Positions 38,299 to 64,000 of a stretch of 64,000 bases of DNA are shown one piece after another. This stretch comes from an uncultured Phycisphaeraceae bacterium. GTDB lineage: Bacteria > Planctomycetota > Phycisphaerae > Phycisphaerales > UBA1924. Made by a program: the position numbers and the translations under genes. The notes beneath the pieces are model-generated. The model saw only the letters and a program-made list of their open reading frames with translations, was not told the DNA's origin and did not search any database. The first letter of the stretch is position 1, and every line of letters starts with the position of its first letter. The stretch spans positions 57,678 through 121,677 of the forward strand of contig CAZCBN010000001.1 in assembly GCA_964496975.1 (NCBI GenBank). Direction: 5' to 3'.

Positions 38299-38868
38299 AT
38301 GCAGGCGCCTGCGGTCGTCAAACCCCACACGCTCCGAGACCTCTGCCCGGTTGACGTCAGCCAGCTCACCCGGCAGGTGGCGCAGCTGTCGGATGCCGTC
38401 TGGACGGCGCTCGATGCGGCCAAAGAAAACAAGTTCGCGGTGCTGGGCCACACCCGGCACATCATCTTCCGGTTCTTCCACCCCGCCGAGGATCCCCGGC
38501 GCTTTGTGTCCCACTCCATCTGGCACGCCTGGCGGGAGTCGCTGATGGCCGTGATGGCGCCGGTCGGGGCCACCTACGGTTACGCCCAGCCGGAATTTCC
38601 CAAGGTCATGCTCGCCAGCCTGCCCCCTGGGGGCGTGATTCACCCGCACACCGATGGTGCGGGCGGCAACCTGCTCACGCACAAGATTCACGTGCCACTC
38701 ACCACCAATCCCGGCGTCACGTTCACGATTCGTGACGAAGTGTTCCACCTGGACGTCGGTCGGGCGTACGAGGTGAACAACATCGCGAGACATGGCGGCG
38801 CCAACCACGGCACCGAGGCGCGGGTGCACCTGATCTTCGAGGTGTTCGATCGCGCAGGTCTGGACTGA
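38299..38868 (+). CDS. Aspartyl/asparaginyl beta-hydroxylase-family (2OG-Fe(II) cupin) protein
   Basis: VIHPHTDGAGGNLLTHKIHVPLTTNPGVTF..YEVNNIARHGGANHG..RVHLIFEV (HxD...H facial-triad arrangement). Confidence 0.7.
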   Translation: MQAPAVVKPHTLRDLCPVDVSQLTRQVAQLSDAVWTALDAAKENKFAVLGHTRHIIFRFFHPAEDPRRFVSHSIWHAWRESLMAVMAPVGATYGYAQPEFPKVMLASLPPGGVIHPHTDGAGGNLLTHKIHVPLTTNPGVTFTIRDEVFHLDVGRAYEVNNIARHGGANHGTEARVHLIFEVFDRAGLD

Positions 38869-38891
38869 CGCGCCTGTTCGTCGTTCACCGA

Positions 38892-41084
38892 TCACCGGCG
38901 TCGCTCCATCTCGCGCAGGAGGCTGTAGTAGATCTGCGCCTCACGCGCCCGGCCAATCGTGGACCAGTCGATCTCCGGCGGCGCCGCCGCTTCGATTCGC
39001 CGCAGTCCCTGTTCGAGGGCTGCGACAGGCTGCCGCGGCTGGCGCGCCACGAAGGCCGCTCCGGGAATCAGGGCGAGTGCGGTGACCACGAGGGCGATCA
39101 CCCAGGCCCCGCGTGGCCCTCGCAAGCGTTCCGCTCGGCCGATGGCGGTGATGACGCCGTGCGCGCAGGCCAGCACGAGGGCCGGCCGGAGCATGGCCAG
39201 CAGACGGCCGTGGAGCGGACGCCAGAAATTGAGGCTCTGCACCGGGGACGCGTACGCGTTGAGCGCAGCCGCCGCCACAAACGATCCCGCCCACAACACC
39301 CCGAGCACCGTCAGGTCCGCGCCGACGGGGCCGAGCGAGAGCAGGCTCGAACGCAGGCGCGCGATCCACTCGCGCACCGGCGCCGCGGCGCCAGCCTTGG
39401 CCACGATGACAACGACTGCGGCCGCGCCCGCGGCGACCGCCAGGAGCGGCAGCCCGCCTGTCTCCCCCACGCCGATCAGTCCACCCATCGTCTCGCGGGT
39501 GCCCCACAGCAGAACCGCAGCGGCCCCAATGCCGCCCGCCCATGACCGCAGCGCACGCGGCCGCAGGATCCCATCGGTGGCGAGCAACACGGTCGCCAGC
39601 AAGCCGACGTGGCTCTGGTGCACCAGCGAGAGGCACAGCAGCCACGCGTACGACGCGCCCAGCCGGCCCCGCCAGCGCAGGACGAACACGCCAAGTGCGA
39701 GCAGGTTGAAGTGGTGACGCGGGGTGTCGCCAAAGATGGTGGATGGGGGTCCGGGATTGAGCAGCATCCCGACGAGGTTGCGCCACGAGACGTCCCACGC
39801 GGCCGCGCCCGACGACACGTCCGGCAGCAGCAACAAGCCGCCGCCGACGGCCATCCCGAAGAGCGACAACACATGAAACAGACTGTGCAGCCCGGCGATG
39901 CCCCCCACCGCCGCCGCCAGTGACACCAGCCACCCGGTGTCGCGCAGGGACCAGGCCAGCAGCACCAGGCTGGCGGCCATCAACACCCACGTCGCGGAAT
40001 ACCCCCAGAACATGGCGCGGGCCAGATACGCCGGATAGTCGTGCAGGGGATCCCGGCCCAGCGCCGCCCGGGTGGCGTCGCCCGCCGCCCGGTAGATGAG
40101 CGTCGGGACCAGATAGTTGCCGGCATAGTCCTGTCGCGTGTGGAACCGCCACTGCGTGTTCTCCGAGGCCCCGGCCGCCCGCAACGCGTCGGCCACGCGC
40201 GCATGCGCATCGGCGCTTTCGGCCGCGCGGCCCATCTGAGCGCCGAGGTAATGCAGATACAGCCGGTCATCGTCGGGCCGCAGGCCCGACTCATGCGCGT
40301 ACCCAAGGGCGAGGTGCGCGACCAGCACCACCAGCGCGGCAGTCACGAAGCGACGGTCCGCCGGCGCCGCGGCGACGGCGGGGCGAAGGCGTTCGCTCAC
40401 CAGCACCTGCAGCGCCTGTACACCGTCGCGCCAGCCAATCTTCTTTCCGGCGACACGCGACCGCGGCGCATACGACACCGGCCGTTCGACGATGTGGTGG
40501 CCCGCCCGGAGCAGCCGGGCCGCGATTTGGGGCTCAATGTCGAACCGGTTGGCGGTCAGCGACAGGCCCCGCGCGACCTCGATGCGCATCACCTTGTAAC
40601 ACGTCTCCTGATCAGTCAACGACGCCCCGAACAACACGTTCGTCACCATCGTCAGCACGCGGTTCGCCCAGGCGGTCATCCGCGGCACGCCCGCCGGTGG
40701 CTGGAGGAACCGGGACCCGAACACGACGGCGGACTCTCCGCGCAGAATGGGTTCGACGAGACGGCTGAGGTCCTGGGGGTCCAGTTCGAGGTCGGCGTCC
40801 TGAATGGCGACGACCGATCCGGTCGCCCGTGCCAGTCCCAGGCGAACGGCGGCGCCCTTGCCGCGGTTGCGCGGGGACCTGATGACGATGACTCCCGGCA
40901 CCTCGGCTTCCATCTGGTCCAGAATGTGGCGGGTCTCGTCGGTCGAGCCATCGTCGACGATCAGCACCTCCCGGGGAATCGGGAGGTCGATGGTGAGGAC
41001 CCGATCGATCACGCGCCGGACCGTCCGCGCTTCGTTGTAGACGGGGACGATGATCGACAGGCACTCGTGGCCGGGAGACCGCAC
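38892..41084 (-). CDS. GT2-family glycosyltransferase fused to a large polytopic membrane domain
   Basis: N-terminus LSIIVPVYNEARTVRRVIDRVL..VLIVDDGSTDET..RNRGKGAAVRLGL..VAIQDADLELDP. This is followed by about 480 aa of multiple hydrophobic segments. Confidence 0.8.
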   Translation of the reverse strand: MRSPGHECLSIIVPVYNEARTVRRVIDRVLTIDLPIPREVLIVDDGSTDETRHILDQMEAEVPGVIVIRSPRNRGKGAAVRLGLARATGSVVAIQDADLELDPQDLSRLVEPILRGESAVVFGSRFLQPPAGVPRMTAWANRVLTMVTNVLFGASLTDQETCYKVMRIEVARGLSLTANRFDIEPQIAARLLRAGHHIVERPVSYAPRSRVAGKKIGWRDGVQALQVLVSERLRPAVAAAPADRRFVTAALVVLVAHLALGYAHESGLRPDDDRLYLHYLGAQMGRAAESADAHARVADALRAAGASENTQWRFHTRQDYAGNYLVPTLIYRAAGDATRAALGRDPLHDYPAYLARAMFWGYSATWVLMAASLVLLAWSLRDTGWLVSLAAAVGGIAGLHSLFHVLSLFGMAVGGGLLLLPDVSSGAAAWDVSWRNLVGMLLNPGPPSTIFGDTPRHHFNLLALGVFVLRWRGRLGASYAWLLCLSLVHQSHVGLLATVLLATDGILRPRALRSWAGGIGAAAVLLWGTRETMGGLIGVGETGGLPLLAVAAGAAAVVVIVAKAGAAAPVREWIARLRSSLLSLGPVGADLTVLGVLWAGSFVAAAALNAYASPVQSLNFWRPLHGRLLAMLRPALVLACAHGVITAIGRAERLRGPRGAWVIALVVTALALIPGAAFVARQPRQPVAALEQGLRRIEAAAPPEIDWSTIGRAREAQIYYSLLREMERRR

Positions 41085-41143: not shown

Positions 41144-41977
41144 ATGATGCGAGGTGACGCCATGAGCGGATTTAATCGCTGCACCTGGGCTCGCGCCGGG
41201 TACGTCGTCTACAACGCCCACGACGTGTACATCGGACAGGCGTTCGAGCGGTACGGCGAGTACTCCGAGATCGAGGCGAGATTGTTGCGGCGGCTTTGCC
41301 CTGCTGGGGGCATCGCCGTGGACCTGGGCGCCAACATCGGCGCACACACGCTGGCGCTCTCGAGCGCCGTCGGGCCGGACGGATTCGTCTATGCGTACGA
41401 ACCGCAGCGCGTGGTGTTCCAGACCCTGTGCGCCAATCTCGCGCTCAACAACATCACGAATGTCGACGCGCGCCAGGCCGCCGCGGGCGCGTCCAGCGGC
41501 ACGGTCCTGATTCCCGATCTGGACTACCGCCGACGTGGCAACTTTGGCGGCGTGGACGTGAGCCGGTTCACGAGCGGCCGGCCGGTCCGGCGGGTGGCGC
41601 TCGACGACGACCTCGATGTGCCGGGCCTGAACCTGCTGAAGGTTGACGTGGAAGGCATGGAGCGGGAAGCGCTGCAGGGCGCCCGGCGGCTGATCGCGCG
41701 GTGCCGGCCCTACCTCTACGTCGAAAACGATCGCCTCGACCGTTCAGAGGCGTTGCTGCGCTGTCTGCTCGAGTGGGACTACCGGCTCTACTGGCACCAG
41801 CCGCCGCTGTTTAATCCCGGCAACTTCCTCGGCGCCACTGAGAACGTCTACCCGGGGATTGTCTCGGTGAACGTCCTGGCCGTGCCCCGCGAGTCGCCGC
41901 AGCCGCTGCTGGGGCTTCCCGAGGTGCGCGATCCTGCCGAACATCCCCTTCGCGCCCGGCCCGAGGCCCCTCGCTGA
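41144..41977 (+). CDS. FkbM-family methyltransferase
   Basis: VDLGANIGAHTLALSSAV..VYAYEPQRVVFQTLCANLALNNITNV..LNLLKVDVEGMEREALQGA. Alternative start at ATG 41162. Confidence 0.8.
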   Translation: MMRGDAMSGFNRCTWARAGYVVYNAHDVYIGQAFERYGEYSEIEARLLRRLCPAGGIAVDLGANIGAHTLALSSAVGPDGFVYAYEPQRVVFQTLCANLALNNITNVDARQAAAGASSGTVLIPDLDYRRRGNFGGVDVSRFTSGRPVRRVALDDDLDVPGLNLLKVDVEGMEREALQGARRLIARCRPYLYVENDRLDRSEALLRCLLEWDYRLYWHQPPLFNPGNFLGATENVYPGIVSVNVLAVPRESPQPLLGLPEVRDPAEHPLRARPEAPR

Positions 41978-43931
41978 ACCACGCGTCAAACAGCGGCCGC
42001 AGTTGCTCGGCGCCGTGGACCGACAGGTGGTCCTGATCCCGGTACAACATGCGCCAGCCATCCCGGTGCCGGCACTCCGATTCGTCGCACAGGTACGGCG
42101 CCGGGTCGAACAGACGCGCGCCGGGCAGGCCGCTGAATGCTTCTGCCAGCGCCGCTCGCGTGGAGGCGGCCCGGACCTCGTGCGCCTCCGTCGCGTACAT
42201 CGGACGCGGCCGCAGGCGCAGGCCGTAGTAGTCAACGATCGCCGCCTTGGCGGGGACAAACGGCATCATCGGCACCTGCAGGAGCACCCCGATGGGCGCC
42301 TGTGTCGCGCGCAGCCCGCCGACCGCACGCGCCAGTGACGACGTGAACGCCGACAATGCCGCAGCGTCCCGTGCTTCGTCCGGCGCGACTTCGTCCACCA
42401 GACGCTGTCGGCGCGCGCCCGAACCGGACGACGGGGCGCCCGACGCGTGGAGGATCCAACGCATCGCGAACATCGTCCCGCGGTAACCGTCGGATTGGCT
42501 GACGGACTGCAAAAACCGGGCGATTGAGTCCGGATCGCCGCCCACGCCGGTCCAGGTACGCGACAGGCACAGCACCTGGAGCCCGCGGTCCCGCGCGGCG
42601 CGTCCGAACGTTTCCCGCAGGCTCTGCGCGTGACTGTCACCGAACAACACCACGAACGGGCCAGAGATGGCCTCCAGCCGGCGCTCGCATGGCCGTGGCA
42701 GCTGCGTCGCCGACGTCATGATCGTCTGGACGTCGGCCGGCAGGGTGGACCCGTCGCGTACGAGTCTCGTGATCGCCAACGACCCGGCGACAAACGCCGC
42801 CAGGACCACCAGACTCATGGCCGGTGAAATGGCGAACCGCCGCCGTTCCACCAGATGATGCGTCGGCATCACGAAGACCGCGAGGACCGCCCCATACCGC
42901 AGGTAGTCGCCGGGCGCCGCGCCAAAATCGGGGTTGGCGTACGTGAACACGCCCAGCACCGGCCAATGCCAGAGGTACGCGGCATAACTGACTCCGCCCA
43001 GGTATTCACCGGTGCGGGGCACCACGCCGTCGCCGCGCCGCCGGGCGGGGTCGGCCGCCAGCAGGCAGACCGCCGTCAGGAGACACACCATCACCGTCTG
43101 CGCATTGGGCCATGTCGTGGCGTCCAGCGTCGCGGTGGCGATCACCGCGAGCCCCAGCGCGCCCGCCGTGAACCACACGTGCCGCGAGCGCTGCAGCCAC
43201 CCGACTCGGGCCCACAGCGGCGCGGCCTGGGCCGCGAGCATGAAGCTGCTGGCGCCCACGAGCAGCTCCCACGCCCGAAACGGTCCGAGATAAAACCGCA
43301 GGGCCTCGTCGGGTGCGTTCAGACCACCCCACGCGGCCACCTGACGCGCGAGCGGCACCAGCGGGCTGGCGTTCGACAGGGCCGGCAGGGTCGCGGCGCC
43401 GGTCACCACCAGGAACAGCCAGACTCCGGACGCTCCGCGCAGAGCCCGCCCCTTCCACAGTCCCGCGAGCAGAAGCGGATAGATCAGATAGAACTGTTCT
43501 TCGACTGCCAGCGACCAGGTGTGCAGCAGCACCTGTGCCGACGGCAGCCCCTGAAAATAGTCAGGATTCCCCTCGGCGAAGAGCAGATTCTGCTGGAGGC
43601 CCCCCTGCCACGCGACGGCGCGCTGCAGCCGGCGCAGATCGGCATCGAGATACAGCCACCAGCCCACCAGCAGGGTGCCCGCCGTCACCACCGCCAGCGG
43701 CGGAACGAGGCGGATGATCCGCCGGTAATAGAACTGCCTGAGGAATCCGGTGACCGACGCCGCGTCGGACTCGAGCAGCGCCTTCGTGATGACGAAGCCT
43801 GAGATGACGAAGAAGATGTCGACGCCGACGAACCCGCCCGCGATGAGGTCGAGGTGTCCGGCGATCACCAGGAGCACCGCCGTCGCGCGGAGGTATTCGA
43901 CCTGATGCATCCGGGGCGAAGCGGCGTTCAT
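41811..43931 (-). CDS. Acyltransferase_3 (OafA-type) membrane O-acyltransferase with C-terminal SGNH-like domain
   Basis: Start MNAASPRMHQVEYLRATAVLLVIAGHL..GVDIFFVISGFVITK. Multi-TM core, then the soluble domain ..FVVLFGDSHAQSL..YRDQDHLSVHGA. The last ~50 codons are an Arg-rich tail antisense to the FkbM gene. Confidence 0.8.
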   Translation of the reverse strand: MNAASPRMHQVEYLRATAVLLVIAGHLDLIAGGFVGVDIFFVISGFVITKALLESDAASVTGFLRQFYYRRIIRLVPPLAVVTAGTLLVGWWLYLDADLRRLQRAVAWQGGLQQNLLFAEGNPDYFQGLPSAQVLLHTWSLAVEEQFYLIYPLLLAGLWKGRALRGASGVWLFLVVTGAATLPALSNASPLVPLARQVAAWGGLNAPDEALRFYLGPFRAWELLVGASSFMLAAQAAPLWARVGWLQRSRHVWFTAGALGLAVIATATLDATTWPNAQTVMVCLLTAVCLLAADPARRRGDGVVPRTGEYLGGVSYAAYLWHWPVLGVFTYANPDFGAAPGDYLRYGAVLAVFVMPTHHLVERRRFAISPAMSLVVLAAFVAGSLAITRLVRDGSTLPADVQTIMTSATQLPRPCERRLEAISGPFVVLFGDSHAQSLRETFGRAARDRGLQVLCLSRTWTGVGGDPDSIARFLQSVSQSDGYRGTMFAMRWILHASGAPSSGSGARRQRLVDEVAPDEARDAAALSAFTSSLARAVGGLRATQAPIGVLLQVPMMPFVPAKAAIVDYYGLRLRPRPMYATEAHEVRAASTRAALAEAFSGLPGARLFDPAPYLCDESECRHRDGWRMLYRDQDHLSVHGAEQLRPLFDAWFSEGPRAGREGDVRQDRAPREAPAAAAATRGARPGRSPRQSPGRRSQWRRGSCRD

Positions 43932-43989
43932 CGCAGACGCGCATTCTACCCGCCGCCGGGGGCGTGAGGCCCTGTGATATGGTCCGGCC

Positions 43990-44796
43990 GTGTCGTCGAC
44001 GCCGACCGATCCGCCCGATCTCTCCGGCAGCATCGTCGTCCTGGCTCACGCGCGAACCGGATCGTCACTGGTGATGCAGACGCTGCGCCTGCTCGGGGCG
44101 CAGGTGCTGGGCGACTTCGCGCGGCCCGACCTGCCGCAGTCGGCGAATCCGAAGGGCTACTTCGAGGATTTGGATCTGCTGCGCGACGGCCTGTCGGCGC
44201 GGGCCCTGGCCGACGCCCCGCGCCTGCTGCGCGGGCGCGCCGTGAAACTGGCGCTGCACCCGCTGGTCCACCGTCGATCGCGCGGCGAGTGGACGGCGTT
44301 GGCGCAGCCCGAGGTCCGGCTCCTGCTGCCGATCCGGACGCCGGCCGAATCGCTGACCTCGCGCCAGGTCTTCCTGCGATCGGATGACCCGCGCGCGCGG
44401 CACGACCTGTTCCACATGTCCGCGCGCAACCGGCTGCTGGATTTCGGGTTTCTCGCCGAGTGGGTTGGCGCGGCGGGGCGCCATCGCCCGGCCCCGGCCG
44501 TCATCGACTACGAACTCGCCATCGCCGATCCCGCGCGGTATGTGGCGCAGGTGGCGGACGCCGCGGCCCTGCAGCCGACCGGCGCGCAGCGGTCCGCGGC
44601 GCTCGACAACATCGATCGGGATCTCTACCGGTTCCGCCTGGCCGGCGACACCGCCACTCGCGCGGCGGCCGGCGTTCGGCCCCTCGAGCGCGTGTATGAC
44701 CTGCTGCGCGCCAATGATCCCGACCGGTGGGCGCGGCTTCGTGACTCGTTGCCGCCCTGGGTGTCCGAGGCGGCACGCGCGCCGCTGACCGACTGA
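43990..44796 (+). CDS. Sulfotransferase-like P-loop protein
   Basis: GTG start. IVVLAHARTGSSLVMQTL resembles the 5'-phosphosulfate-binding loop of Stf0-type sulfotransferases. Confidence 0.5.
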   Translation: MSSTPTDPPDLSGSIVVLAHARTGSSLVMQTLRLLGAQVLGDFARPDLPQSANPKGYFEDLDLLRDGLSARALADAPRLLRGRAVKLALHPLVHRRSRGEWTALAQPEVRLLLPIRTPAESLTSRQVFLRSDDPRARHDLFHMSARNRLLDFGFLAEWVGAAGRHRPAPAVIDYELAIADPARYVAQVADAAALQPTGAQRSAALDNIDRDLYRFRLAGDTATRAAAGVRPLERVYDLLRANDPDRWARLRDSLPPWVSEAARAPLTD

Positions 44797-45663
44797 CTAC
44801 GGCGCCGACGCCCAGTCCGCCCGCGCGGCCTGCCACTGCAGGAACGGCCCGCGGCGGTCTTCCTCCATGGCGTGCAGCGCGGCGGCCGTCACGTTCCACG
44901 GCTTGGGTGGCCCGAGAAAGTGCACGAGTGCGGCGTCGGCCACCGGGACCCGCGGCCGGGTATACCGCGCCATGTGGCCCGCGATGAAATAGTTGTAGTG
45001 TTCGCGAGCCCTCGTCCAGCGCCCCCGGAAGTACCGGTTGAGGATCACGCTGTCGGTGTGCCCTGTCCGCACCCCGGCCCAGGTCTCCGGACGCACCAGG
45101 TCCACCAGATCGCGGAAGGTCGATTCCCCGAGCCGGCCCGGCGCGATCGAGAGCACCCCCGCGTTGAACATCAGGTCGCCGGCACGCGCCTCGAGCGCCT
45201 CCGGTCCGACCTCGGCCGCGACGTACGTCACCGGGTCGCGAATCTGTCCGCGGTAATAACTCTGATCGGGACACGCGAGCAGCGGGGCGTCGGTGGCCGC
45301 CAGCGCGGCGACGGTGCCGGTACAGAGCACGTCGCTGTCGATTTTCAGCACCCGCGCGTACTCGGTAAGGCTGAAGGCGTCGAGCGCAAACAGGATGCGG
45401 GCTTTACGCGCGACCGCGGGCACCTGGTCGGCCGTGGCCGTCACGCGCGCCTTCAGCCGCGCGTCCACCGCGCGGAAGGTCACGTTCGGAAACCGGCGGA
45501 GCGCCTCCACCGCCGCAGGCGGCAGCCCATCGTGGATGATGACAATGCGGCCGGTGAACCACGGGTTGTGGCGCAGGAACGACCACAGCAGCACCAGCGT
45601 CCCCGGCAGGTACGCCTCATCGGTCACCGTGGCCAGGCAGGTTGAATCGGGCGCGGTAATCAA
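44797..45663 (-). CDS. GT8-family glycosyltransferase
   Basis: CLATVTDEAYLPGTLVLLWSFLRHNP.., DxD-type KIDSDVLCTG, and C-terminal HFLGPPKPW. There is no in-frame ATG near the domain start, so TTG 45663 was chosen. The 536-aa track ORF is 5'-extended. Confidence 0.7.
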   Translation of the reverse strand: MITAPDSTCLATVTDEAYLPGTLVLLWSFLRHNPWFTGRIVIIHDGLPPAAVEALRRFPNVTFRAVDARLKARVTATADQVPAVARKARILFALDAFSLTEYARVLKIDSDVLCTGTVAALAATDAPLLACPDQSYYRGQIRDPVTYVAAEVGPEALEARAGDLMFNAGVLSIAPGRLGESTFRDLVDLVRPETWAGVRTGHTDSVILNRYFRGRWTRAREHYNYFIAGHMARYTRPRVPVADAALVHFLGPPKPWNVTAAALHAMEEDRRGPFLQWQAARADWASAP

Positions 45664-45681
45664 TTGAAATTCCCAGTGGGC

Positions 45682-46251
45682 ATGCGCAGAGTCTTCGGCA
45701 TCGGATTCCACAAGACGGGGACGTCGAGCCTCGCGGCCGCGCTGGCGCTGCTCGGCTACCGGGTGTGCCAGGGCGCACGGCCGATTCGCCAGGCGCTCGG
45801 CGTCACCGAAGCCCTCGACCTGCTGCGCCGCCACGAGCTGGACCCGATCCTGCGGGTGGCCGAGCGCTTCGACGCCTGCACCGACAATCCCTGGTTTCTC
45901 CTGTACCGCGAGCTCGACGAGCGCTTTCCGGGGAGCCAGTTTATCCTGACTCATCGGCCGCCGGCCGCGTGGCTCGCGAGCGCGCTGCGGTACTACGGCC
46001 GCAGTGAGACCCCGATGCGGCACTGGATCTACGGGGTCGGCACGCCCACCGGTCACGAGGCCGTTTGGCTTGCGCGGTACGAGCGGCACCTGGCCGACGT
46101 GCGCCGGCACTTCGCCGGCCGGCCGGATGACCTGCTCGAGGCGGACTGGACGCAGGGCGACGGCTGGTCCACGTTGGGCCGCTTTCTCGGGCGGAAGACA
46201 CCATCCCAGCCGTTTCCCCACGTCCGACCGGTTCGCTCCCCGCGCCCCTAG
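45682..46251 (+). CDS. Sulfotransferase-family protein
   Basis: MRRVFGIGFHKTGTSSLAAAL (PAPS 5'-PSB loop-like) and ..FILTHRPPAAWLAS. Same orientation as the PqqD gene and 46 nt upstream of it. Confidence 0.65.
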   Translation: MRRVFGIGFHKTGTSSLAAALALLGYRVCQGARPIRQALGVTEALDLLRRHELDPILRVAERFDACTDNPWFLLYRELDERFPGSQFILTHRPPAAWLASALRYYGRSETPMRHWIYGVGTPTGHEAVWLARYERHLADVRRHFAGRPDDLLEADWTQGDGWSTLGRFLGRKTPSQPFPHVRPVRSPRP

Positions 46252-47722: not shown

Positions 47723-47724
47723 GC

Positions 47725-56413: not shown

Positions 56414-57630
56414 GCGAGGAGGCTCCGACCGGCGGCCGACGCGAGGAACGCAGCGGAATCCAGGCCTGCTGGGCGGCCCCGGCTCGGATCACGCAAGAAG
56501 GTGTAGACCTGCCACACTTCGCGAGCTGTCCGCTGGACGTCGAACATCACCCGCGCCAGCGCCCGTCCGCGCGCGGCGAGGGCACGCGCCGACGGCAGGT
56601 CGTCGAGGACCTCGTTGATCGCGTCAGCCACCTGCGCGGGGGCGTGGCTGTCGACCGTGCGACCCGTCACACCATCGATGACCAGCTCGCCCAAGGCGCC
56701 GACACGTCCGGCGATGGTCGGCACCCCTGCCAGCAGGGGCTCGAGCACCCCCCCCATGTTCTCACTGAGCGGCACGTGCACGGCGCAGTCGAAGTCGGCC
56801 CACGCCGCCACGACGTCTTCGTGCGGCAGGTACCCCGGCATGAGGATGCGGCCGTGCCCAACGCGAGCGGCCATCCGCCTGAGCTTTCGTTCGTAGGCGT
56901 CGGCGCCATTCCAAGGCCCGCCGGCCAGCACTCCAACGACGTCCTGACGTCGGGCGAGGACCATCGCCAGGGCTTCAATCACCCCTTCGTGGTTCTTGAT
57001 GCCGCGGGTCTGACCAAGCAGCCTCTTCGGCGCATACAAGTAGTTGATGTTGCCAACGATTCGCAGCCCGTCGCCCACCCCAAGCCGTCGGCGCAGCACG
57101 CCGGGGCCCTCCGCGCCTGCTACCGGCAGGTCCATGCCGGGATAACTCAGGAACACCCGACCGATTGGTGCCCCGGCCTGCACGAGACGATCCCACACGC
57201 AGCGGCTGGCGGCGATCCACGCATCACCCGGGCCGGCTGACGCGAGTTCAAGCCGACGATAGAAGGCGTATTCGAGATGCAACGGCCCCAGCACCTGGAA
57301 GACACGCGGCACCGGGTGGGCCCGTCCAAGCGCATGACGCAACACCAGGGTGGTGCCCAGCGCATACGAGTGGATGATGTCGGGGCGCACTCGCTCGACG
57401 AGACGGCGTGCCGCGTCCAGGGCGGCGGGCACCTGCCACGGTGCGGCGGTCGGCAGGTCGAGTGACGCCTCGTGCAACGTCGCGCCGGAGGCCCGCCACC
57501 GTCCAAGCGCCTGACCAGATTCCGGCGGAAGCGCGACGTGCACATCAGCGCCCAGGTGGACGAGCGCCCGCGCCTGGGCGGCCGCCCACAAGCCCCCTTC
57601 GGTGGTCTTGACCACCAGCAGGACCCTCAT
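56410..57630 (-). CDS. GT4-type (GT-B fold) glycosyltransferase
   Basis: MRVLLVVKTTEGGLWAA.. and C-terminal VHVPLSENMGGVLEPLLAGVPTIAGRVGALGELVIDGVTG (EX7E-like). The start overlaps the stop of the upstream gene (ATGA, 57627-57630). Confidence 0.8.
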   Translation of the reverse strand: MRVLLVVKTTEGGLWAAAQARALVHLGADVHVALPPESGQALGRWRASGATLHEASLDLPTAAPWQVPAALDAARRLVERVRPDIIHSYALGTTLVLRHALGRAHPVPRVFQVLGPLHLEYAFYRRLELASAGPGDAWIAASRCVWDRLVQAGAPIGRVFLSYPGMDLPVAGAEGPGVLRRRLGVGDGLRIVGNINYLYAPKRLLGQTRGIKNHEGVIEALAMVLARRQDVVGVLAGGPWNGADAYERKLRRMAARVGHGRILMPGYLPHEDVVAAWADFDCAVHVPLSENMGGVLEPLLAGVPTIAGRVGALGELVIDGVTGRTVDSHAPAQVADAINEVLDDLPSARALAARGRALARVMFDVQRTAREVWQVYTFLRDPSRGRPAGLDSAAFLASAAGRSLLA

Positions 57631-59075
57631 GCGCCAGTTCCTGCACGTGCCGGCTGAAGGCGAGTGCTGATGAGGGTGACCGCAAGCCACGGCACCGCAC
57701 CCGCCTTCACGAAGAGAAAGACCAGATTGTCCGAGTCCAACGGAAGCGCCAACAGGCAGATCGTCACCAGATGCGGCACCAGCAGCCGCCGGGCATCGCC
57801 TGTCTCCGTCCATCGCAGTTGGCAACGCCGCACTGTCCCCACAAGGATGCCGAACGCGCCGTACATCACCGGCACAAACAGCGGGCCGAAATTCAAGATC
57901 GCCTCTCCACTGAGACCATACACGCGGCTCGTCCGGCGACCGCGCGCGAAGGCCCCGACGTGGTCCTCGAGGTCGGTGGTCCAGCGAATCTTCCCCGGAG
58001 GCCGCGACGGCCAAATCCGCGCTGGCACGAGCAGCGCCAACGACCCGAGATAGGTCTGGCCCCACGCCGGTGTCCAGTGACGTCGCTCATCCATGACCCG
58101 CCACAGGGCCAACGCCTGAACGTCACTGCGGGACAAGTCACTCAAGAGCAGGACCGACCAGTCGCGCTGTACACCAATGGCCGCCGTCGTCTCGCCGGCG
58201 ATCAGGCGGGTGGTCCGCAACCCGGCGTCCTTGTACCAGCCCCAGACAAACGCCAGAATCAACACCAGCGGAATGCCGGCCAGGAGCAGCCGCTTCGTAA
58301 AGGGCCGGATCGTGGTGTGTGCAATGCCGGCGGCCCAAAAGAGCCCCCAGATGATCGTCGCCCGGCTGCCCCGCAATCCGCCAAACAGCACGAACACCGG
58401 AATCATTGCGGTCAGCAACACGCCAACCACTGCCAGCCGGCGCGTCCACGCCCACCGGCTCGCCGCCAGTCCAATCCCGAACATGAGCAGGATCGGGAAG
58501 CTCTCCGAAATCATCAGGATCCAGCCGGTGCCTTTGAAGGCGTCGTACAGAAGGGTGTTGCGCTCGAATGCCTCGACGTACCCGCGGACACCGCCGAAGC
58601 GAGCGAAGACCCACACCTGGGTCAGCGCCGTCACCACGAGCAGGACCGGCAGGACCCATCGCGCCCGGGCGCTCTCCAGATACCATCGCGCCGCAGCGGG
58701 GCGTGCGGGACGGGCCAGCGTCCACTGCCGAACCATCCGATAGACGCCGAGCGACACGACATGCAGCATCGCCATACCGCCGATCCAGGGGCGATAGTCG
58801 GACGGCTGCTGGTCGATGAATCGCAGTGCGTGACCAGACGCCACCGTGAGCAGGGGGGCCACCTGGAAGAAGTAGATGCCCACCACCCCCACCAATCCCA
58901 CCGGGTCGAACGGCTCGGTGGCGCCCGCCCACCAGTCGAGCGCATCCAACAGACACAACACTCCACACACCGTGACCGGCACAACCAGCCAATGCCAGCC
59001 CGCGCTCCCCAGCCAAAGGATCGCGGCGGAGATCACGGAGGCGATCGCTACGGCCATCGGGAGACGCTCAGGCAT
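57627..59075 (-). CDS. Polytopic membrane protein, candidate Wzy-type repeat-unit polymerase
   Basis: 482 aa with more than 10 hydrophobic segments, located between Wzx-like and GT genes. No diagnostic motif was recognised. Confidence 0.5.
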   Translation of the reverse strand: MPERLPMAVAIASVISAAILWLGSAGWHWLVVPVTVCGVLCLLDALDWWAGATEPFDPVGLVGVVGIYFFQVAPLLTVASGHALRFIDQQPSDYRPWIGGMAMLHVVSLGVYRMVRQWTLARPARPAAARWYLESARARWVLPVLLVVTALTQVWVFARFGGVRGYVEAFERNTLLYDAFKGTGWILMISESFPILLMFGIGLAASRWAWTRRLAVVGVLLTAMIPVFVLFGGLRGSRATIIWGLFWAAGIAHTTIRPFTKRLLLAGIPLVLILAFVWGWYKDAGLRTTRLIAGETTAAIGVQRDWSVLLLSDLSRSDVQALALWRVMDERRHWTPAWGQTYLGSLALLVPARIWPSRPPGKIRWTTDLEDHVGAFARGRRTSRVYGLSGEAILNFGPLFVPVMYGAFGILVGTVRRCQLRWTETGDARRLLVPHLVTICLLALPLDSDNLVFLFVKAGAVPWLAVTLISTRLQPARAGTGA

Positions 59076-60372
59076 CGGCCCTCCCGTGTCGAGTCATCAG
59101 CATGAGCGCCGCGAGGCTGCCCAGCGTCTGCACCGTCGCGGTCGCCAGCAGCGTCCACGCCGCGCCCCACAGGCCGGCGTCGGGAATCCACGCGAGACCA
59201 GCCGCAAGACCCGTCAACACGGCGGCCGACAGGACCAGGGTCTGCACCCGAAACGCACGGCCGGCCAGCAGTCCGTACCCCAGGAATGACGCCACCTGGA
59301 GCAAGGCGGCGGCCCCCATCACCGGCACAAGCAACGCGGCGTACGGCACCAACGCGTCGCCGTAGACGACCTGAAGGATCACGGCCCCCCACACCGAGGC
59401 CGCGACGATGCCGGCGGTTCCGACCACGGCCGCCAAACCGAGGAGTCGACGGAGGACCACCGCGAAGTCCCGATGCCGCCCTTCAACCACGCTCCGTGCC
59501 ATGCGATTCATCGCCGCTTCTCCGAACGAGTTCAACACGACGCCGCCCGCCAGGGCGACCGTCGTGATCGAGGCGAACACACCCAGTTCATCAAGACCTC
59601 TCGTCCGCTCGATGACATACCGCGGGATCATCACGACGAGCACACCGAGCGCCGCCGTCACCCCGAGCGGCAGCGACCGCCAGACGAGCGCACGACAGCC
59701 GCCGACAGGCCAGATCAGCGCGAACCCTGACGCCGAGAGGCCGTTGGCGATCTGCGTCCGCCGCGCGTGTGGCAGGTCAAAGAGCAGCAACACGCCCACC
59801 CAGGCGAAGAGGAGGCCGAGCAGTCCCGCCGATAGGTCCGCAGAGCGCAGGCCCGCGACAAACCCCAGCGTGCCGCCGACGCTGCGGGCGATCAGTGACC
59901 ACCCGACCACGCGCAGTTCTCCGGCCTTCTGCCACAGTCCATAACAGAGGTCGCTGGCGCCCTCGACCGCCTTCGCGGCCGAAACGAGCCCGATGGCCAG
60001 GACGGTCTGGCCGGGGTACCCGCTCCACACGCTGACCGCGCCGACCACCAGCAGGGCCGCAAGTGTGCTCAGGTGTCGGACGACCCAGTAGGTCTCAAGC
60101 GCGGTGCGGTTGTCGGCGTCCGTGGCAAGGACCCCTCTGAGCCGCATCGCGAAGAAGAGGAACACCGGGGCTGAGACCGCGAATGCCAGGGCAAACTGCC
60201 CGGCCACCGCTTCCCCGCCCCACCGCAGACAGGCAACCAGCATGAGCCACTGCGCGCCGACGTAGGCGGACTGGCCGCACACGAGCCACGCGGTTCCGCG
60301 ATCGGCCGTACCTGGCAGCCTCCTCACGAAGCGAGCCGCCCAGTCGGCTGGCAGCCACGAGCAGTCGAACAC
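59068..60372 (-). CDS. MOP-superfamily polysaccharide flippase (Wzx-like)
   Basis: 434 aa with about 12 TM segments of Wzx-like organisation. 8-nt overlap with the downstream gene. Confidence 0.6.
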   Translation of the reverse strand: MFDCSWLPADWAARFVRRLPGTADRGTAWLVCGQSAYVGAQWLMLVACLRWGGEAVAGQFALAFAVSAPVFLFFAMRLRGVLATDADNRTALETYWVVRHLSTLAALLVVGAVSVWSGYPGQTVLAIGLVSAAKAVEGASDLCYGLWQKAGELRVVGWSLIARSVGGTLGFVAGLRSADLSAGLLGLLFAWVGVLLLFDLPHARRTQIANGLSASGFALIWPVGGCRALVWRSLPLGVTAALGVLVVMIPRYVIERTRGLDELGVFASITTVALAGGVVLNSFGEAAMNRMARSVVEGRHRDFAVVLRRLLGLAAVVGTAGIVAASVWGAVILQVVYGDALVPYAALLVPVMGAAALLQVASFLGYGLLAGRAFRVQTLVLSAAVLTGLAAGLAWIPDAGLWGAAWTLLATATVQTLGSLAALMLMTRHGRADA

Positions 60373-60385: not shown

Positions 60386-61570
60386 TCATGGCGAGGTCGC
60401 CGGCGCCGGCGACTGGCTCAGCGCGTCACGCACGGATTCGTACCAGCCACGGCGCCGCGTCCACAACGCGCCTTCGGCATAGGTCCGCGCGATCTCCAGA
60501 TTCCTTCGCGACATCTCGTCCAATCGAGCGGGATCGGCCAATGCGGTCCGCAGCGCGACGGCAAGCCGACCGGCGTCACGCGGGGGCACGGTGTCTTCTG
60601 GCCGCAGCAACTCCGCGATGCCCTCCACGTCGCTGCCGATACAAGGCAGCCCGCGTGCCATGGCCTCGACGAGCGCCCGCGACAGGCCTTCGGTGAAGGA
60701 TGGCAGCACAAAGATCGAGGCCCGGTCGAGTTGCTCGCGCACGGCCGTCCCGGCTGGGATCGCCCCAAGAAACGTCACACACTCGCCGACACCGAGCTCC
60801 CGAGCCATCCGCTCGAGCTTCGATCGCAGCCGTCCCTCGCCAACAATGGTCACCCGCAGCGGCAGGCCGGCCCGATGACAGGCCGCGCAGGCGTTGATGA
60901 GCACCGCCGTTCCCTTCATCGGCTGTTCAAGCGACCCGATGGTGATGACGGTGGGCGCCGGTGGTGAGGGATGCCGACGGGCCGAAGCGGCAAACGCACC
61001 TTCAGGCAAGACGACGTCGGAGCCCACCGTGACAATCGCTCCGGCCGACGGCGGGTACAACCGCTTGAGTCCGTGTGAAACATAGTGCACGGCCACGGCT
61101 CCACGCACAATCGATCGCAGCCCCCTGATGAAGACCTGGCGGAACACGCCGTGGAGCGGATGACTCGTGGCCCCCGTCGCGAGGGACTGCGCGGGATCTC
61201 CGACGACCATCGCCGCCCACCGTTGCCCCCGGGAGGCCAGCACCCCGGCCATGACCGCCGCGAGTTGGCCAGGCGCGCGCAGCAAAATCGTCTCACCCGG
61301 AAGGACGGCGGCGGCCAACGCGCGCCGGACGGCCCGACGACGCCGGACGTACGCCACCGGCCCAATGTAGTGGGGAACCGCACTGACGGTCACGAACGGG
61401 TCATCGACCCGGGCCCACGCAGGATCAGCGGCGGGAACATCCTTGACGCGCGCCACAAGGCGCACGCGACTGAACACTTCGAGGTACCGATCCCAGTGCG
61501 ATGTTTCATAGACGGTGTCGGTCCACACCGAGCCATCCGGCGTCCGCAGAAACCGGAATTCCATCACCAT
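60386..61570 (-). CDS. GT4-type (GT-B fold) glycosyltransferase
   Basis: C-terminal IFVLPSFTEGLSRALVEAMARGLPCIGSDVEGIAELL (EX7E motif). The start is uncertain (ATG 61570 or 61564). The 522-aa track ORF is 5'-extended. Confidence 0.75.
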   Translation of the reverse strand: MVMEFRFLRTPDGSVWTDTVYETSHWDRYLEVFSRVRLVARVKDVPAADPAWARVDDPFVTVSAVPHYIGPVAYVRRRRAVRRALAAAVLPGETILLRAPGQLAAVMAGVLASRGQRWAAMVVGDPAQSLATGATSHPLHGVFRQVFIRGLRSIVRGAVAVHYVSHGLKRLYPPSAGAIVTVGSDVVLPEGAFAASARRHPSPPAPTVITIGSLEQPMKGTAVLINACAACHRAGLPLRVTIVGEGRLRSKLERMARELGVGECVTFLGAIPAGTAVREQLDRASIFVLPSFTEGLSRALVEAMARGLPCIGSDVEGIAELLRPEDTVPPRDAGRLAVALRTALADPARLDEMSRRNLEIARTYAEGALWTRRRGWYESVRDALSQSPAPATSP

Positions 61571-61722
61571 GACCAACGTGCCCGCCACATTCCGGACAGG
61601 GCGATTCTCGGACGACACGGGCACGCGCACTATCGTATCGCGCCCCGGCGGTGTCAGAGCATCGGACCGGCGCCTGGAACGTGCCGCGGCATCGGCCTGC
61701 AACGGGTGCAGTAAGATTCCGG

Positions 61723-63528
61723 ATGAATCCAGTGTCCGCACGTCCGCCCTCATTGTCTCTCGTCGTCGTGGCCTACAACATCCCGCGGGAGGCGCCGCGG
61801 ACGTTGCACTCGCTCTCGGCGGCCTATCAACGGGAGATTGCCAGCGATGCGTACGAGGTCCTCGTGGTCGACAACGGCTCGACGCCCCCGCTGGATCCGG
61901 ACCTGATCTGTCGGCTCGAGGGCAACTTCCGTCTGATTCGCATCGACGATGCACACCCGTCGCCGGTGGCGGCGGTCAACCGGGGGCTGGCGGCCGCCCG
62001 CGGTGACGTGATCGGCGTGATGATCGACGGGGCCCGCATTGCCACGCCGGGCTTGTTGCACTTCGCCTCTCGCGCGGCGACCCTGGACTCCGAAGCCGTC
62101 GTCGCCGCTCCTGGCTGGTATCTGGGCCCAACCTACCAGCGACGGGCAGTGAAGCGCGGTTATTCGCAGGATCGTGAAGATGCCCTGCTCGACTCGATCG
62201 GCTGGCCCAACGACGGATACCGACTGTTCGAGATCGGCGTGCTGGATGAATCGTCGGGATACGGCTGGGGAGGGTCGATCGTCGAATCCAATGCGATCTT
62301 CATGCGACGCCATCGTTGGACCGCGATCGGCGGCATGGAAGAGGCGTTTCGTGCACCCGGCGGAGGCCTGGCCAATCTGGACCTTTTCAAGCGCGCCGTG
62401 GAGGCGCCACAGGCACGGCTGATTCTGCTCATCGGTGAGGGGACGTTCCACCAGCTGCACGGCGGCGTGGCCACCAACGAACCCTTGAAGTCGCATCGCC
62501 GGCACATCGCGCAGTGGTCGCTCGAATACGAACGGATTCGCGGCACGCCGTACGCCGTGCCGCAACTGCCGCAGCCGCCCATCTGCTTCGGGCCGTTGTC
62601 CCCTGCGGCGGCGCGCCGGTACGCGCGAACGGCGGTGATTCCCACCTGGGGAGCCCTCGTGCGACGCGCCTGGTCCGCGGTGCCGACGGCCTGGCGGGTC
62701 GGCGCGCTTCTGCGAGTCGCGCGCGCGTCGGCACGTGCGGGCCGGCGGGCACACGCCATGCAGGCGCTCCAGCGAGCGTTGGCGCTCGATCCGACATCCG
62801 CGAAAGCCGCGCTGCATCTGGCGAGGTTACGGATGCCTGGCGACTCCTACGTGGTCTGGCTGTCACGTTTCTACCGCGCGCTGGCACCAGCCACCGCCAT
62901 CGAGATCGGCGTCTTCCAAGGCCAGACGCTCGCCCTGTTCCAGCCGCCGACGGTCGCGATCGGCGTCGACCCCAGGCCGGACCTCCGTGTCACGCTCGGA
63001 GCCACGACACGGATCGCGCGCATGACGAGCGACGAGTTCTTCCAGGGCACGGCCGCCCACGACGCCCTTGGAAGACAACCCTTGTCCGTCGGATTCATTG
63101 ATGGGCTGCACACCTTCGAGCAGGCCCTGCGCGATTTCCGGCACCTCGAGGCGCTCAGTGGGCCCCGATCACTCATCCTCATCCACGACACGATTCCGCT
63201 CAGCGAACTGACTCAGCGAGCCGAGTCGGCGACGCCGTTTCACACCGGCGACGTCTGGAAGCTGGTGTTGTGCCTCAAGCACTACCGGCCGGATCTCGAC
63301 GTCTTCACAATTCCCGCGCCGCCCACGGGCCTGACCGTCGTCGCGGGACTCGACCCCTCATCACGGATTCTGACCGATCGGTACGACGAGGCCGTCGACC
63401 GGTTCGGCACGGCGTCATACGCGGACCTGGTCACGCGCCAGGACACGGCGTTGAATGTCATCGAGCACGACTGGGACGTCGTGCGGTCCCGGCTGGCCGC
63501 GCGCGGCATTCAGCTGCCGCCGTTGTAG
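61723..63528 (+). CDS. Three-module protein: GT2-like glycosyltransferase + TPR-like linker + class I SAM methyltransferase (Methyltransf_24-like)
   Basis: LSLVVVAYNIPREAPRTLHSL..EVLVVDNGSTP..GVMIDGARI (GT-A). HAMQALQRALALDPTSAKAALHLARL (TPR-like). ATAIEIGVFQGQTLALF..VGFIDGLHTFEQALRDF..LILIHDT (methyltransferase). Confidence 0.7.
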   Translation: MNPVSARPPSLSLVVVAYNIPREAPRTLHSLSAAYQREIASDAYEVLVVDNGSTPPLDPDLICRLEGNFRLIRIDDAHPSPVAAVNRGLAAARGDVIGVMIDGARIATPGLLHFASRAATLDSEAVVAAPGWYLGPTYQRRAVKRGYSQDREDALLDSIGWPNDGYRLFEIGVLDESSGYGWGGSIVESNAIFMRRHRWTAIGGMEEAFRAPGGGLANLDLFKRAVEAPQARLILLIGEGTFHQLHGGVATNEPLKSHRRHIAQWSLEYERIRGTPYAVPQLPQPPICFGPLSPAAARRYARTAVIPTWGALVRRAWSAVPTAWRVGALLRVARASARAGRRAHAMQALQRALALDPTSAKAALHLARLRMPGDSYVVWLSRFYRALAPATAIEIGVFQGQTLALFQPPTVAIGVDPRPDLRVTLGATTRIARMTSDEFFQGTAAHDALGRQPLSVGFIDGLHTFEQALRDFRHLEALSGPRSLILIHDTIPLSELTQRAESATPFHTGDVWKLVLCLKHYRPDLDVFTIPAPPTGLTVVAGLDPSSRILTDRYDEAVDRFGTASYADLVTRQDTALNVIEHDWDVVRSRLAARGIQLPPL

Positions 63529-63539
63529 AATTTGCGCAG

Positions 63540-64000
63540 GTGCCACCCTCCGTTCTCCCGAGCGTCTCGACCGGCCGGCCCGATCTGAGCGTCTGCATCG
63601 TCAACGACAACAACATCGACTTGCTGCGGTGCTGCCTGCGCGCCGTGTTCGAGCAGACTTCCGGCATGCATCGGGAGGTCATCGTCGTCGACAACGCCTC
63701 CGAAGACAACAGCGCGGACCTGATCGAGCGAGAATTCCCGGCCGTGCACCTGCTTCGCGGCTCGGTGCGCCAGGGGTATACGCCCAACATGAATCGGGCC
63801 ATCCGCGCCTCGCGTGGCCGGTTCATCGCCCTGCTCAATGACGACGCCGAACCGGTCGGCGAGGCCCTCGTCCGCCTCTCGGCGTTCCTCGAGCAACACC
63901 CGGCGTATGGCGCCGTCGGGCCGCGACTCGTGAACGTGGATGGCACGTTCCAGAGCGGACCGCGAGGTGAAGCGACGCCGCTGGCGCTGCTGTGCCATCT
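63540..64000 (+). CDS. GT2-family glycosyltransferase (3' end outside window)
   Basis: Frame-0 reading from GTG 63540: ..LSVCIVNDNNIDLLRCCLRAVFEQT..EVIVVDNASEDNSADLI..QGYTPNMNRAIRASRGRFIALLNDDAEP. It is open to the window end and so is absent from the ORF track. Confidence 0.75.
   Translation, partial: MPPSVLPSVSTGRPDLSVCIVNDNNIDLLRCCLRAVFEQTSGMHREVIVVDNASEDNSADLIEREFPAVHLLRGSVRQGYTPNMNRAIRASRGRFIALLNDDAEPVGEALVRLSAFLEQHPAYGAVGPRLVNVDGTFQSGPRGEATPLALLCH

Follow-up and report, generated by a model that had tools for sequence, protein, structure and literature searches.

The locus described here raises the question of whether a small peptide gene and its two putative partners, a PqqD-family protein and an HprK-like kinase, belong to the polysaccharide genes among which they are found. 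The three genes lie in a stretch of 64,000 nucleotides (hereafter the window) from an uncultured Phycisphaeraceae bacterium (assembly GCA_964496975.1; contig CAZCBN010000001.1, positions 57,678 to 121,677). A preliminary description had placed this triad in the middle of a 26-kb glycan island of the Wzx/Wzy type, extending from 38.3 kb to the window end, and had proposed the peptide as a primer, scaffold or regulator, with mere co-location as the null hypothesis. Here we report that the 26 kb fall, with a probability that we put at about 70%, into two separable units: a kinase-associated, lasso-related cluster for a peptide that is made by ribosomes and modified post-translationally (RiPP) at 38.3-54.6 kb (Unit A), and an ordinary Wzx/Wzy module of the exopolysaccharide (EPS) type from 55.1 kb to the window end (Unit B). 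The enzymes of Unit A that resemble glycan-decorating functions are probably peptide-tailoring enzymes.

With a G + C content of about 0.69 throughout the window, a mechanically made list of open reading frames (ORFs) is mostly noise. Genes were called from third-position G + C content (GC3) and frame plots, and Pfam and NCBIfam models were run on their products, with a second Pfam run at E ≤ 10 for the Wzx-like, Wzy-like and STn_268 proteins. Neighbourhoods of kinase homologues were gathered by exact-protein look-up, one genome scan and one metagenome scan, with at most 10 kb of DNA on each side of the relatives' kinases. Every window protein was compared with every gathered locus using tblastn, which yielded a homology matrix. 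The genome scan was seeded with a narrow kinase alignment and returned a single locus, L007, which derives from an Acidobacteriota metagenome-assembled genome and is the sole named source among the seven close metagenomic loci. The close relatives comprise L002, L007, L088, L089, L090, L091 and L095, and the short loci L008 and L009.

Gene neighbourhoods of the triad and of the polysaccharide genes

The homology matrix is block-structured. Genes of the left block match only kinase loci and genes of the right block match only EPS loci, the exception being a weak partial GT4 match in L002, and a reading of the left block as a random mix of sugar genes is rejected by this structure. The seven loci with close homologues of the kinase (41-55% identity) repeatedly carry one or two genes for Asp/Asn beta-hydroxylase-like proteins (AspH), genes for the sulfotransferase-like proteins ST4, STn_268 and ST3, a GT8 glycosyltransferase gene, a PqqD gene, and a gene for a peptide of 50-60 amino acids (aa). 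The sulfotransferases, both hydroxylases and GT8 accompany the triad in every close relative with enough sequence; a formyltransferase, an SGNH-type enzyme, a TPR-GT9 remnant, a protein with a phage-tail-collar domain (Collar) and a binding protein do so less often. L002 and L091 also carry Collar and Peripla_BP_6 genes, and L088 additionally has the sulfotransferase ST2, AT3/SGNH fragments and the TPR-GT9 remnant, in the gene order of the window.

The same accessory set is found beside mutS in L043 (contig Ga0209344_10000189, 3791-20865), which belongs to an organism with a G + C content of 33%. This cluster contains a formyltransferase, two Collar proteins, an ABC transporter, AspH, JmjC, the kinase, a sulfotransferase, PqqD and a precursor peptide that ends in ...ITEGGTLIADDQEDGFYTS (FYTS); beyond the peptide follow a sulfotransferase, an Asn synthase, a further sulfotransferase, two GDSL/SGNH genes and NTP_transf_5. 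No B2 protease, glycosyltransferase or polysaccharide gene is present in the L043 cluster. That the set is conserved across such a distance, with its order shuffled, speaks for a single functional cluster and against a chance neighbourhood. Mere co-location, the null hypothesis, fails for the left block, whose tailoring genes recur with the triad even in this 33%-G + C organism, and holds for the Wzx/Wzy genes.

For the right block, no homologues of the Wzx-like, Wzy-like or Wzy_C proteins were found in the kinase relatives within up to 10 kb on each side, and the Wzy_C protein has no homologue in any kinase locus. The Wzx-Wzy-GT4 trio sits instead in canonical EPS loci without PqqD or kinase, as in both loci examined (L092 and L093), which also carry GT4-Bac_transf, PglD, DegT and Polysacc_synt_2, and in the case of L092 additionally Wza and Wzc. 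In the loci gathered, the comparative check proposed earlier, namely whether the triad co-occurs with its neighbours across genomes, gives a positive answer for the sulfotransferases, hydroxylases and GT8, and, within the DNA fetched, a negative one for the Wzx-like, Wzy-like and Wzy_C genes. The triad is central in the left block of 16 kb and not in a Wzx/Wzy island, as had been described; the Wzx/Wzy genes all lie in the right 9 kb.

Between the two blocks, a decayed gene for an initiating phosphoglycosyl-transferase (Bac_transf; 54830-55160, + strand) lies between the second hydroxylase-like gene (AspH_b) and the Wzy_C gene. Its section 54987-55145 matches the Bac_transf C-terminus of L093 (53% identity, E = 2e-11) and L092 (45%, E = 1e-8) and is interrupted by an in-frame stop within the GPRP motif; a piece resembling the N-terminus is read in a different frame, and the middle section is lost. 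No intact initiating phosphoglycosyl transferase is present in the window besides this remnant. A scan for promoters and terminators gave no more sites than were obtained with shuffled sequences, and none at the seam of 573 nt. On the preferred reading, the polysaccharide module is adjacent to the peptide cluster by happenstance, and the decayed Bac_transf gene marks the seam.

The right block resembles Wzx/Wzy-dependent EPS and O-antigen loci in its Wzx-like, Wzy-like, Wzy_C, GT4 and GT2 genes, and differs from them in that the initiating transferase of the window is a pseudogene and that the module runs off the window end. Wza and Wzc were likewise not seen in the window: tblastn with the L092 proteins gave only chance-level matches, and Pfam found none among the upstream genes. 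An intact initiating transferase and the Wza/Wzc genes may lie beyond 64 kb.

The triad, its precursor family and the lasso-type genes

The first gene of the triad encodes a RiPP recognition element (RRE) of the PqqD family (46316-46588, + strand; PF05402, E = 4e-16), corresponding to the B1-type peptide chaperone of lasso clusters; it scores 79.2 bits against NF033536 (lasso_PqqD_Bac; cutoff 80). The precursor peptide of 52 aa, VDTNEPPERFAEPTPALKEWETPTLITEDIVEVTKGGSLTLASPGDDTWYRS, was read from the sequence at 46613-46771 (+ strand). It has a GTG start, preceded at a distance of a few bases by the Shine-Dalgarno-like motif GAAAGGA, and is recorded as a called gene in a protein database (P0241). 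The third gene is convergent with the precursor gene and encodes an HprK-like (ScmC-family) peptide kinase of 311 aa (46787-47722, - strand; TIGR04352, E = 7e-12; PF07475, E = 1.5e-4; precomputed match to PF27840, ScmC) with 327 detectable homologues. The Pfam and NCBIfam matches and the 52-aa ORF with its GAAAGGA motif bear out the triad as it was first described.

The kinase has kept the residues H123, G138, G141, G143, K144, S145, D161 and D162 (H...GxxGxGKS...DD), with a spacing identical to H148-G163-G166-G168-K169-S170-D186-D187 of the lasso kinase BsfK, whose catalytic motif has been defined experimentally (PMC10368454). The phosphorylation of the C-terminal Ser of linear precursors by such kinases is established (PMC8498205, PMC6993621), and this Ser is the phosphorylation site in paeninodin and pseudomycoidin. 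In L090, two paralogous HprK-like kinases lie at opposite ends of the cluster (3704-4651 and 13678-14604; 43% and 32% identity to the kinase of the window).

A word-indexed search with the 52-aa peptide returned only the peptide itself; an exhaustive HMMER search yielded ten further small peptides, which were aligned with those from the loci. All 15 aligned precursors (window and 14 relatives) have an invariant W, P, T-x-G-G and Tyr, together with an acidic pair and a C-terminal Ser. The leader motif W20..P23.L25 and T34-K-G-G of the window are invariant or nearly so across the 15; a leader motif Y/W..P.L for recognition by the RRE has been described (PMC10368454). The core x6-PGDD-x-WY-x-S of the window is found in 8 precursors, and 10 of the 15 have one and the same distance between GG and DD. 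The first Asp would be core position 9 if cleavage occurs after GG, and position 11 under the usual T(-2) rule; acceptors in lasso peptides are at 7-9. The closest homologue of the precursor (62% identity; L094, 378-542; P0242) lies on a contig of 3.8 kb beside phage-lysozyme and DUF1353 genes; no PqqD or kinase is detectable on this short contig, which is uninformative.

Distant homologues of the kinase (27-39% identity; about 39 loci of at least 7 kb) are mostly found in canonical lasso clusters of the paeninodin/pseudomycoidin type, which carry PqqD, a B2 protease (Transglut_core3), an Asn-synthase-type cyclase and often NTP_transf_5. With the model of the lasso isopeptide cyclase (NF033535), the relatives' Asn synthases reach 378-417 bits, compared with 184-206 bits on the asparagine synthase model. 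An assignment as true asparagine synthases or EPS amidotransferases was rejected because of this roughly twofold higher lasso-cyclase score. A cyclase-like gene is present in every kinase locus of the homology matrix, and lies directly 3' of the kinase gene in 7 of the 9 close relatives, with an overlap of 4 nt in L002. A hidden Markov model (HMM) of B2 built from 30 sequences found no B2 in L002, L088, L089, L090, L091 and L043, and L007 has a bona fide B2; the close clade thus appears to be mostly B2-less, at least locally. L007, L089 and L043, as well as many of the distant loci, encode NTP_transf_5.

In the window, the stop of the precursor gene (46771) and that of the kinase gene (46787) are separated by 15 nt, and the cyclase slot is empty. 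No cyclase was found in the 64 kb by tblastn, either at E ≤ 1e-3 with the cyclase-like proteins of L002 and L005 as queries or at E ≤ 0.1 with those of L043 and L088. The B2 HMM, which recovered the proteases of L007, L005 and L028 as a control, found none among all window ORFs of at least 50 aa at E ≤ 10, and tblastn was also negative. NTP_transf_5 was not found in the window by tblastn with the proteins of L003, L043 and L089 (E ≤ 0.1), and no JmjC protein or ABC exporter is detectable in the 64 kb. With the cyclase and B2 absent from the window, the product would either be a linear tailored peptide or depend on a cyclase encoded outside the window.

The triad shares several features with the kinase-type clusters of paeninodin and pseudomycoidin (PadeK, PsmK) and of proteobacteria (ThcoK/SyanK): the catalytic motif of the kinase, a separate PqqD-type B1, a W/Y..P.L leader, a Thr near the cleavage site and an obligatory C-terminal Ser. 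The window differs from them in the lack of a cyclase, B2, NTP_transf_5 and an ABC exporter, in the presence of four sulfotransferases, two AspH-like oxygenases, GT8, TPR-GT9, a formyltransferase and Collar, and, if the usual T(-2) rule applies, in an acidic acceptor at 11 rather than 7-9 residues after T(-2); the close clade differs in that it usually lacks B2 even where a cyclase is present. That the phosphoserine of pseudomycoidin is further glycosylated had been stated correctly; there a hexose is added by a PsmN-type nucleotidyltransferase (NTP_transf_5), the type absent from the window (PMC6993621). A PqqD-family protein is likewise paired with an HprK-like kinase in the HPr-rel-A (TIGR04352 and TIGR04353) and SynChlorMet (ScmC/ScmD) systems. 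The window proteins differ from these in their scores for TIGR04352, TIGR04353 and TIGR04249 (45, 30.7 and 35.7 bits), all below the family cutoffs (200, 35 and 125, respectively) and, for the first and third, far below, and the window lacks the radical SAM genes that belong to the SCM cassette.

Individual genes of the two units

The conserved module of Unit A is bounded on the left by the gene of an Asp/Asn beta-hydroxylase-like protein, AspH_a (38299-38868, + strand; PF05118, E = 7e-11). Its homologues (38-41% identity over most of the protein) adjoin the kinase in L002, L088, L091 and L043, with partial matches in L007 and L090. The next gene encodes a GT2 domain fused to a domain with eight transmembrane (TM) segments (38892-41084, - strand; PF00535, E = 5e-35) and is similar to polyprenyl-phosphate-sugar synthases; its best NCBIfam matches are AglJ, PpgS and ArnC, all below cutoff. 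The fusion has no homologue in any relative in the tblastn matrix and is, among the genes of the module, specific to this lineage. Next comes an FkbM-family methyltransferase (41144-41977, + strand; PF05050, E = 1.5e-14; TIGR01444, 80.8 bits, above cutoff). A different FkbM-type gene adjoins the kinase in L002, with no detectable direct homology to that of the window. Apart from the TIGR01444 match, no above-cutoff NCBIfam name was obtained for the tailoring enzymes.

An AT3 acyltransferase-SGNH fusion (41811-44033, - strand; PF01757 and PF19040) has fragments of 45-54% identity at the matching relative position in L088. Its frame is convergent with that of the FkbM gene and overlaps it by 167 nt (41811-41977); the last ~57 residues of the acyltransferase, past the SGNH domain, are rich in Arg and Pro and look like a spurious extension caused by high G + C content. 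The adjacent sulfotransferase-like protein STn_268 (43990-44796, + strand) is Pfam-negative even at E ≤ 10 and was recognised via its relatives, with 55-68% identity to proteins in L002, L088, L089 and L095 and split matches in L007. L002 encodes a protein of 459 aa (14137-15516) that consists of an STn_268 half and an ST4 half and carries PF17784 and a faint PF13469 match; L095 has a protein of 901 aa with PF17784 (2263-4968), and both halves match this locus at 57-59%. The split and joined forms of STn_268 and ST4, which in the window lie on either side of GT8, are the result of gene fission or fusion within the family.

The GT8 glycosyltransferase (44797-45627, - strand; PF01501, E = 1e-16) has homologues of 40-53% identity in L002, L007, L088, L089 and L091, always beside ST4, and the Sulfotransfer_4 protein ST4 itself (45664-46251, + strand; PF17784, E = 2e-33) has homologues of 55-59% in six close relatives. 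On the other side of the triad, TPR repeats fused to a GT9-like domain are encoded divergently from the kinase gene (47725-49506, + strand; TPR families and PF01075, the latter weak with E = 8e-5), with a remnant of 41 aa (56% identity) at the matching position in L088. The Sulfotransfer_2 protein ST2 (49491-50153, - strand; PF03567, E = 3e-14) has homologues in L088 (47%, partial), L095 (32%) and L043 (27%).

The Collar protein (50195-50899, + strand; PF07484, E = 9e-26) probably starts at an ATG near 50246. Homologues of 37-43% identity are found beside the kinase clusters of L002 (two copies), L090, L091, L043 (two copies), L005 (three copies) and L028, at 17641-18817 in L002, 4657-5232 in L090, 15252-15857 in L091, 4870-6119 in L043 and 16382-18042 in L005. 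Peptide clusters with kinase and PqqD genes are thus repeatedly accompanied by small Collar proteins, often in tandem, even in organisms that are not related to each other (70% and 33% G + C); nothing on Collar proteins in RiPP clusters was found in the literature searched. The adjoining gene encodes a homologue of Peripla_BP_6 binding proteins (50907-52040, + strand; PF13458, E = 4e-22), and homologues of 29-31% identity adjoin Collar in L002 and L091.

An Fmt/ArnA-like formyltransferase (51977-53050, + strand; PF00551, E = 2e-15; TIGR00460, 97.8 bits, below cutoff) has a near full-length homologue in the L043 cluster (25%, E = 3e-38). The occurrence of the AglJ/PpgS/ArnC-like GT2 fusion and the Fmt/ArnA-like formyltransferase in one block recalls an Arn-type route for amino sugars on a lipid carrier; L002 has a PMT_2 (GT-C) gene instead. 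Towards its right end, Unit A encodes the Sulfotransfer_3-like protein ST3 (52980-53864, - strand; PF13469, E = 2.5e-5), with homologues of 35-52% in L002, L090, L091 and L005, and its right edge is formed by the second Asp/Asn beta-hydroxylase-like protein, AspH_b (53900-54583, - strand; PF05118, E = 1e-17), which is 60% identical to a homologue in L002 that likewise adjoins an ST3 homologue.

Unit B begins with a Wzy_C membrane protein of the O-antigen ligase/polymerase family (55157-56413, - strand; PF04932, E = 1.5e-15; nine TM-like segments) and a GT4 glycosyltransferase (56410-57600, - strand; PF00534, PF13692 and PF13439; EPS_EpsE-like, below cutoff). The Wzy-like membrane protein (57627-59075, - strand) and the Wzx-like flippase (59068-60372, - strand) each have 11 TM-like segments and are Pfam-negative even at E ≤ 10. 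The Wzy-like protein has 266 homologues of about 40% identity from Acidobacteriota, Gemmatimonadota-like, Chloroflexota, cyanobacterial and even archaeal sources, one of which is named O-antigen polymerase Wzy by UniRef. The Wzx-like protein is 32-35% identical to the products of genes just upstream of the Wzy-like gene (L092) or one GT4 gene away from it (L093), and the L093 homologue (35%) carries PF01943 (Polysacc_synt). A second GT4 glycosyltransferase (GT4_b; 60386-61954, - strand; PF13692, E = 6e-29; start probably near 61600) is 39-42% identical to GT4 genes of L092 and L093. It is followed by a fusion of GT2, TPR and Methyltransf_24 domains recognised by Pfam (61651-63528, + strand) and by a GT2 glycosyltransferase that is cut by the window end (63540->64000, + strand; PF00535, E = 4e-21).

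These assignments agree with most of the earlier gene inventory. Pfam recovers its three GT2, two GT4, GT8 and TPR-GT9 glycosyltransferases (with a weak GT9 match), the acyltransferase, the FkbM and a second methyltransferase (a domain inside 61651-63528), the formyltransferase and the two hydroxylase-like genes. Three of the four sulfotransferase-like genes are Pfam-positive, and the fourth (43990-44796) was recognised through the fused protein of its relatives; among the Wzx-like, Wzy-like and ligase-like proteins, Wzy_C was found by Pfam and the others by their TM segments and their homologues in EPS loci. The Collar and Peripla_BP_6 proteins of this stretch are no glycan functions.

The genes upstream of 38.3 kb are unrelated and include ClpB, KatG, a peptidase, two-component systems, an ECF sigma factor, MacB-type permeases and PadR. 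Those left of AspH_a (FGase-like, cytochrome c'-like, PadR and MacB) have no counterpart in the relatives. The two large MacB/FtsX-type permease genes (21688-24411 and 33722-36388), the second of which directly adjoins the PadR gene (36393-36887), also lack counterparts in the related peptide loci.

Proposed pathway, alternative explanations and significance

The chemical steps that we infer for Unit A start with the binding of the W..P.L leader by PqqD, by analogy with related systems (PMC8498205, PMC6993621, PMC10368454). The kinase would then phosphorylate the C-terminal Ser of the linear precursor, as do PadeK, PsmK and the proteobacterial lasso kinases. The AspH-like hydroxylases may act on the conserved acidic pair (DD), and the sulfotransferases and GT8 may decorate hydroxyl groups of the invariant Tyr, of Ser/Thr, of a new beta-hydroxyl or of an attached sugar, which would give a small, strongly anionic peptide. 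Direct sulfation of the peptide is more likely than sulfation of a sugar, because L043 and L005 have sulfotransferases without any glycosyltransferase. A peptide bearing sulfate, phosphate and sugar is plausible. RaxX is a tyrosine-sulfated RiPP with a sulfotransferase, RaxST, and can be likened, by description only, in its conserved Tyr and the adjoining gene for a sulfotransferase of the 3'-phosphoadenosine-5'-phosphosulfate (PAPS) type. RaxX is not known to be accompanied by a PqqD protein, a kinase or hydroxylases, and its precursors belong to an unrelated family. No sulfated lasso peptide was found in the literature searched.

As a tentative extension, the loci could represent an undescribed RiPP family with W..P.L...T-x-G-G-x6-PGDD-x-WY-x-S precursors, a PqqD protein, an HprK-like kinase, a lasso-cyclase-like enzyme, usually no B2, several sulfotransferases and Asp/Asn beta-hydroxylases, and often GT8 and Collar. 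Its products would be the first lasso-type peptides to combine sulfate, phosphate and hydroxyl modifications, and this genome would hold a natural cyclase-less derivative with a linear, poly-anionic and perhaps glycosylated product.

Several points weigh against the division into a peptide cluster and a separate polysaccharide module, and against the chemistry assigned to the former. The residues assigned to phosphate, sulfate, hydroxyl and sugar are putative. The peptide could also receive a glycan assembled by GT8, TPR-GT9 and the GT2-membrane fusion, which would be nearer to the idea of the preliminary description. ST3 and AspH_b share the strand of the EPS genes and lie downstream of them, with no terminator predicted in the seam, and co-transcription with the EPS genes is conceivable. 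Two GT4 genes lie at the edge of the L002 locus, and adjacency to sugar genes may recur; the relatives were viewed up to 10 kb from the kinase, and Wzx/Wzy genes could be located further away. The relatives are also phylogenetically non-independent. Finally, most close relatives are without B2, and the acidic acceptor is at position 9 only if cleavage follows GG, so that even the relatives are uncertain as true lassos.

That the entire 26 kb form one glycan island, in which the phosphopeptide serves as primer, scaffold or regulator of a sulfated, phosphodiester-linked polysaccharide made by Wzx/Wzy, is highly improbable. Three glycosyltransferases lie inside the conserved block, GT8 is kept with the triad, and the orientation of ST3 and AspH_b, without a predicted terminator before them, would suit a single island. 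The only initiating phosphoglycosyl-transferase gene of the window has decayed, so that a different acceptor would be conceivable, and phosphoserine can bear hexoses in pseudomycoidin (PMC6993621). However, the EPS module runs off the window and may include an intact gene for the initiating transferase past 64 kb, and the NTP_transf_5 type of enzyme that glycosylates pseudomycoidin is absent from the window. Homologues of Wzx, Wzy and Wzy_C are missing from the fetched DNA of all relatives that carry the triad, complete EPS loci hold the Wzx-Wzy-GT4 trio without the triad, and the sulfotransferases of L043 and L005 occur with no glycosyltransferase at all. The proposal of the peptide as a polysaccharide primer found no support.

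The two other alternatives concern the state of Unit A. It could be a decaying, non-functional remnant of a lasso cluster that has lost its cyclase and has no protease or exporter, the other genes persisting because the loss is recent. The absence of the cyclase, B2, JmjC, NTP_transf_5 and the ABC exporter from the window would fit such decay, as would the three interspersed lineage-specific genes (GT2 fusion, FkbM and full-length TPR-GT9) and the visibly decayed Bac_transf gene next to it. We nevertheless regard it as improbable: the conserved left-block genes align with those of the relatives over 90-100% of their length without frameshift or stop, their coding GC3 is high throughout, the catalytic residues of the kinase are intact, and the precursor retains all invariant positions and the full SPGDD-x-WY-x-S core found in 8 relatives. 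Judged by these features, the cluster is not obviously dead. It is unlikely, to a lesser degree, that Unit A is part of a complete lasso pathway whose cyclase, and perhaps protease, is encoded outside the 64 kb, with a threaded, phosphorylated and sulfated lasso as product. The window covers 64 kb of a source contig of 145.9 kb, and gene order is fluid among the relatives: the cyclase of L089 lies on the far side of the peptide, with only a cyclase fragment beside the kinase, the L090 kinase closest to that of the window is not adjacent to a cyclase, and B2 is non-adjacent in most relatives too. In 7 of the 9 close relatives, however, the cyclase gene directly follows that of the kinase, a slot that is empty here, and nothing cyclase-like is present in the 38 kb upstream or the 17 kb downstream.

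The preferred reading, a peptide-tailoring cluster beside a separable polysaccharide module, is deflationary on the polysaccharide side, where the EPS module looks ordinary. A default annotation would read the four sulfotransferases, two hydroxylases, GT8, formyltransferase and acyltransferase as polysaccharide-decorating enzymes; they are better read as RiPP tailoring enzymes. The kinase-type lasso family is already known, and the presence of sulfotransferase genes in its clusters was remarked on from 2014-2016 onwards, although none of them has been characterised (PMC4289311, PMC8498205). Judging from gene content, the window appears to hold a form of this lasso-related family that is rich in sulfotransferases and hydroxylases, B2-less and, in this genome, cyclase-less. 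The regular core and the invariant Tyr provide a concrete set of substrate and enzymes for the study of these sulfotransferases, and the B2-less relatives and the cyclase-less window are natural experiments on the uncoupling of tailoring from cyclisation, a question raised for pseudomycoidin (PMC6993621).

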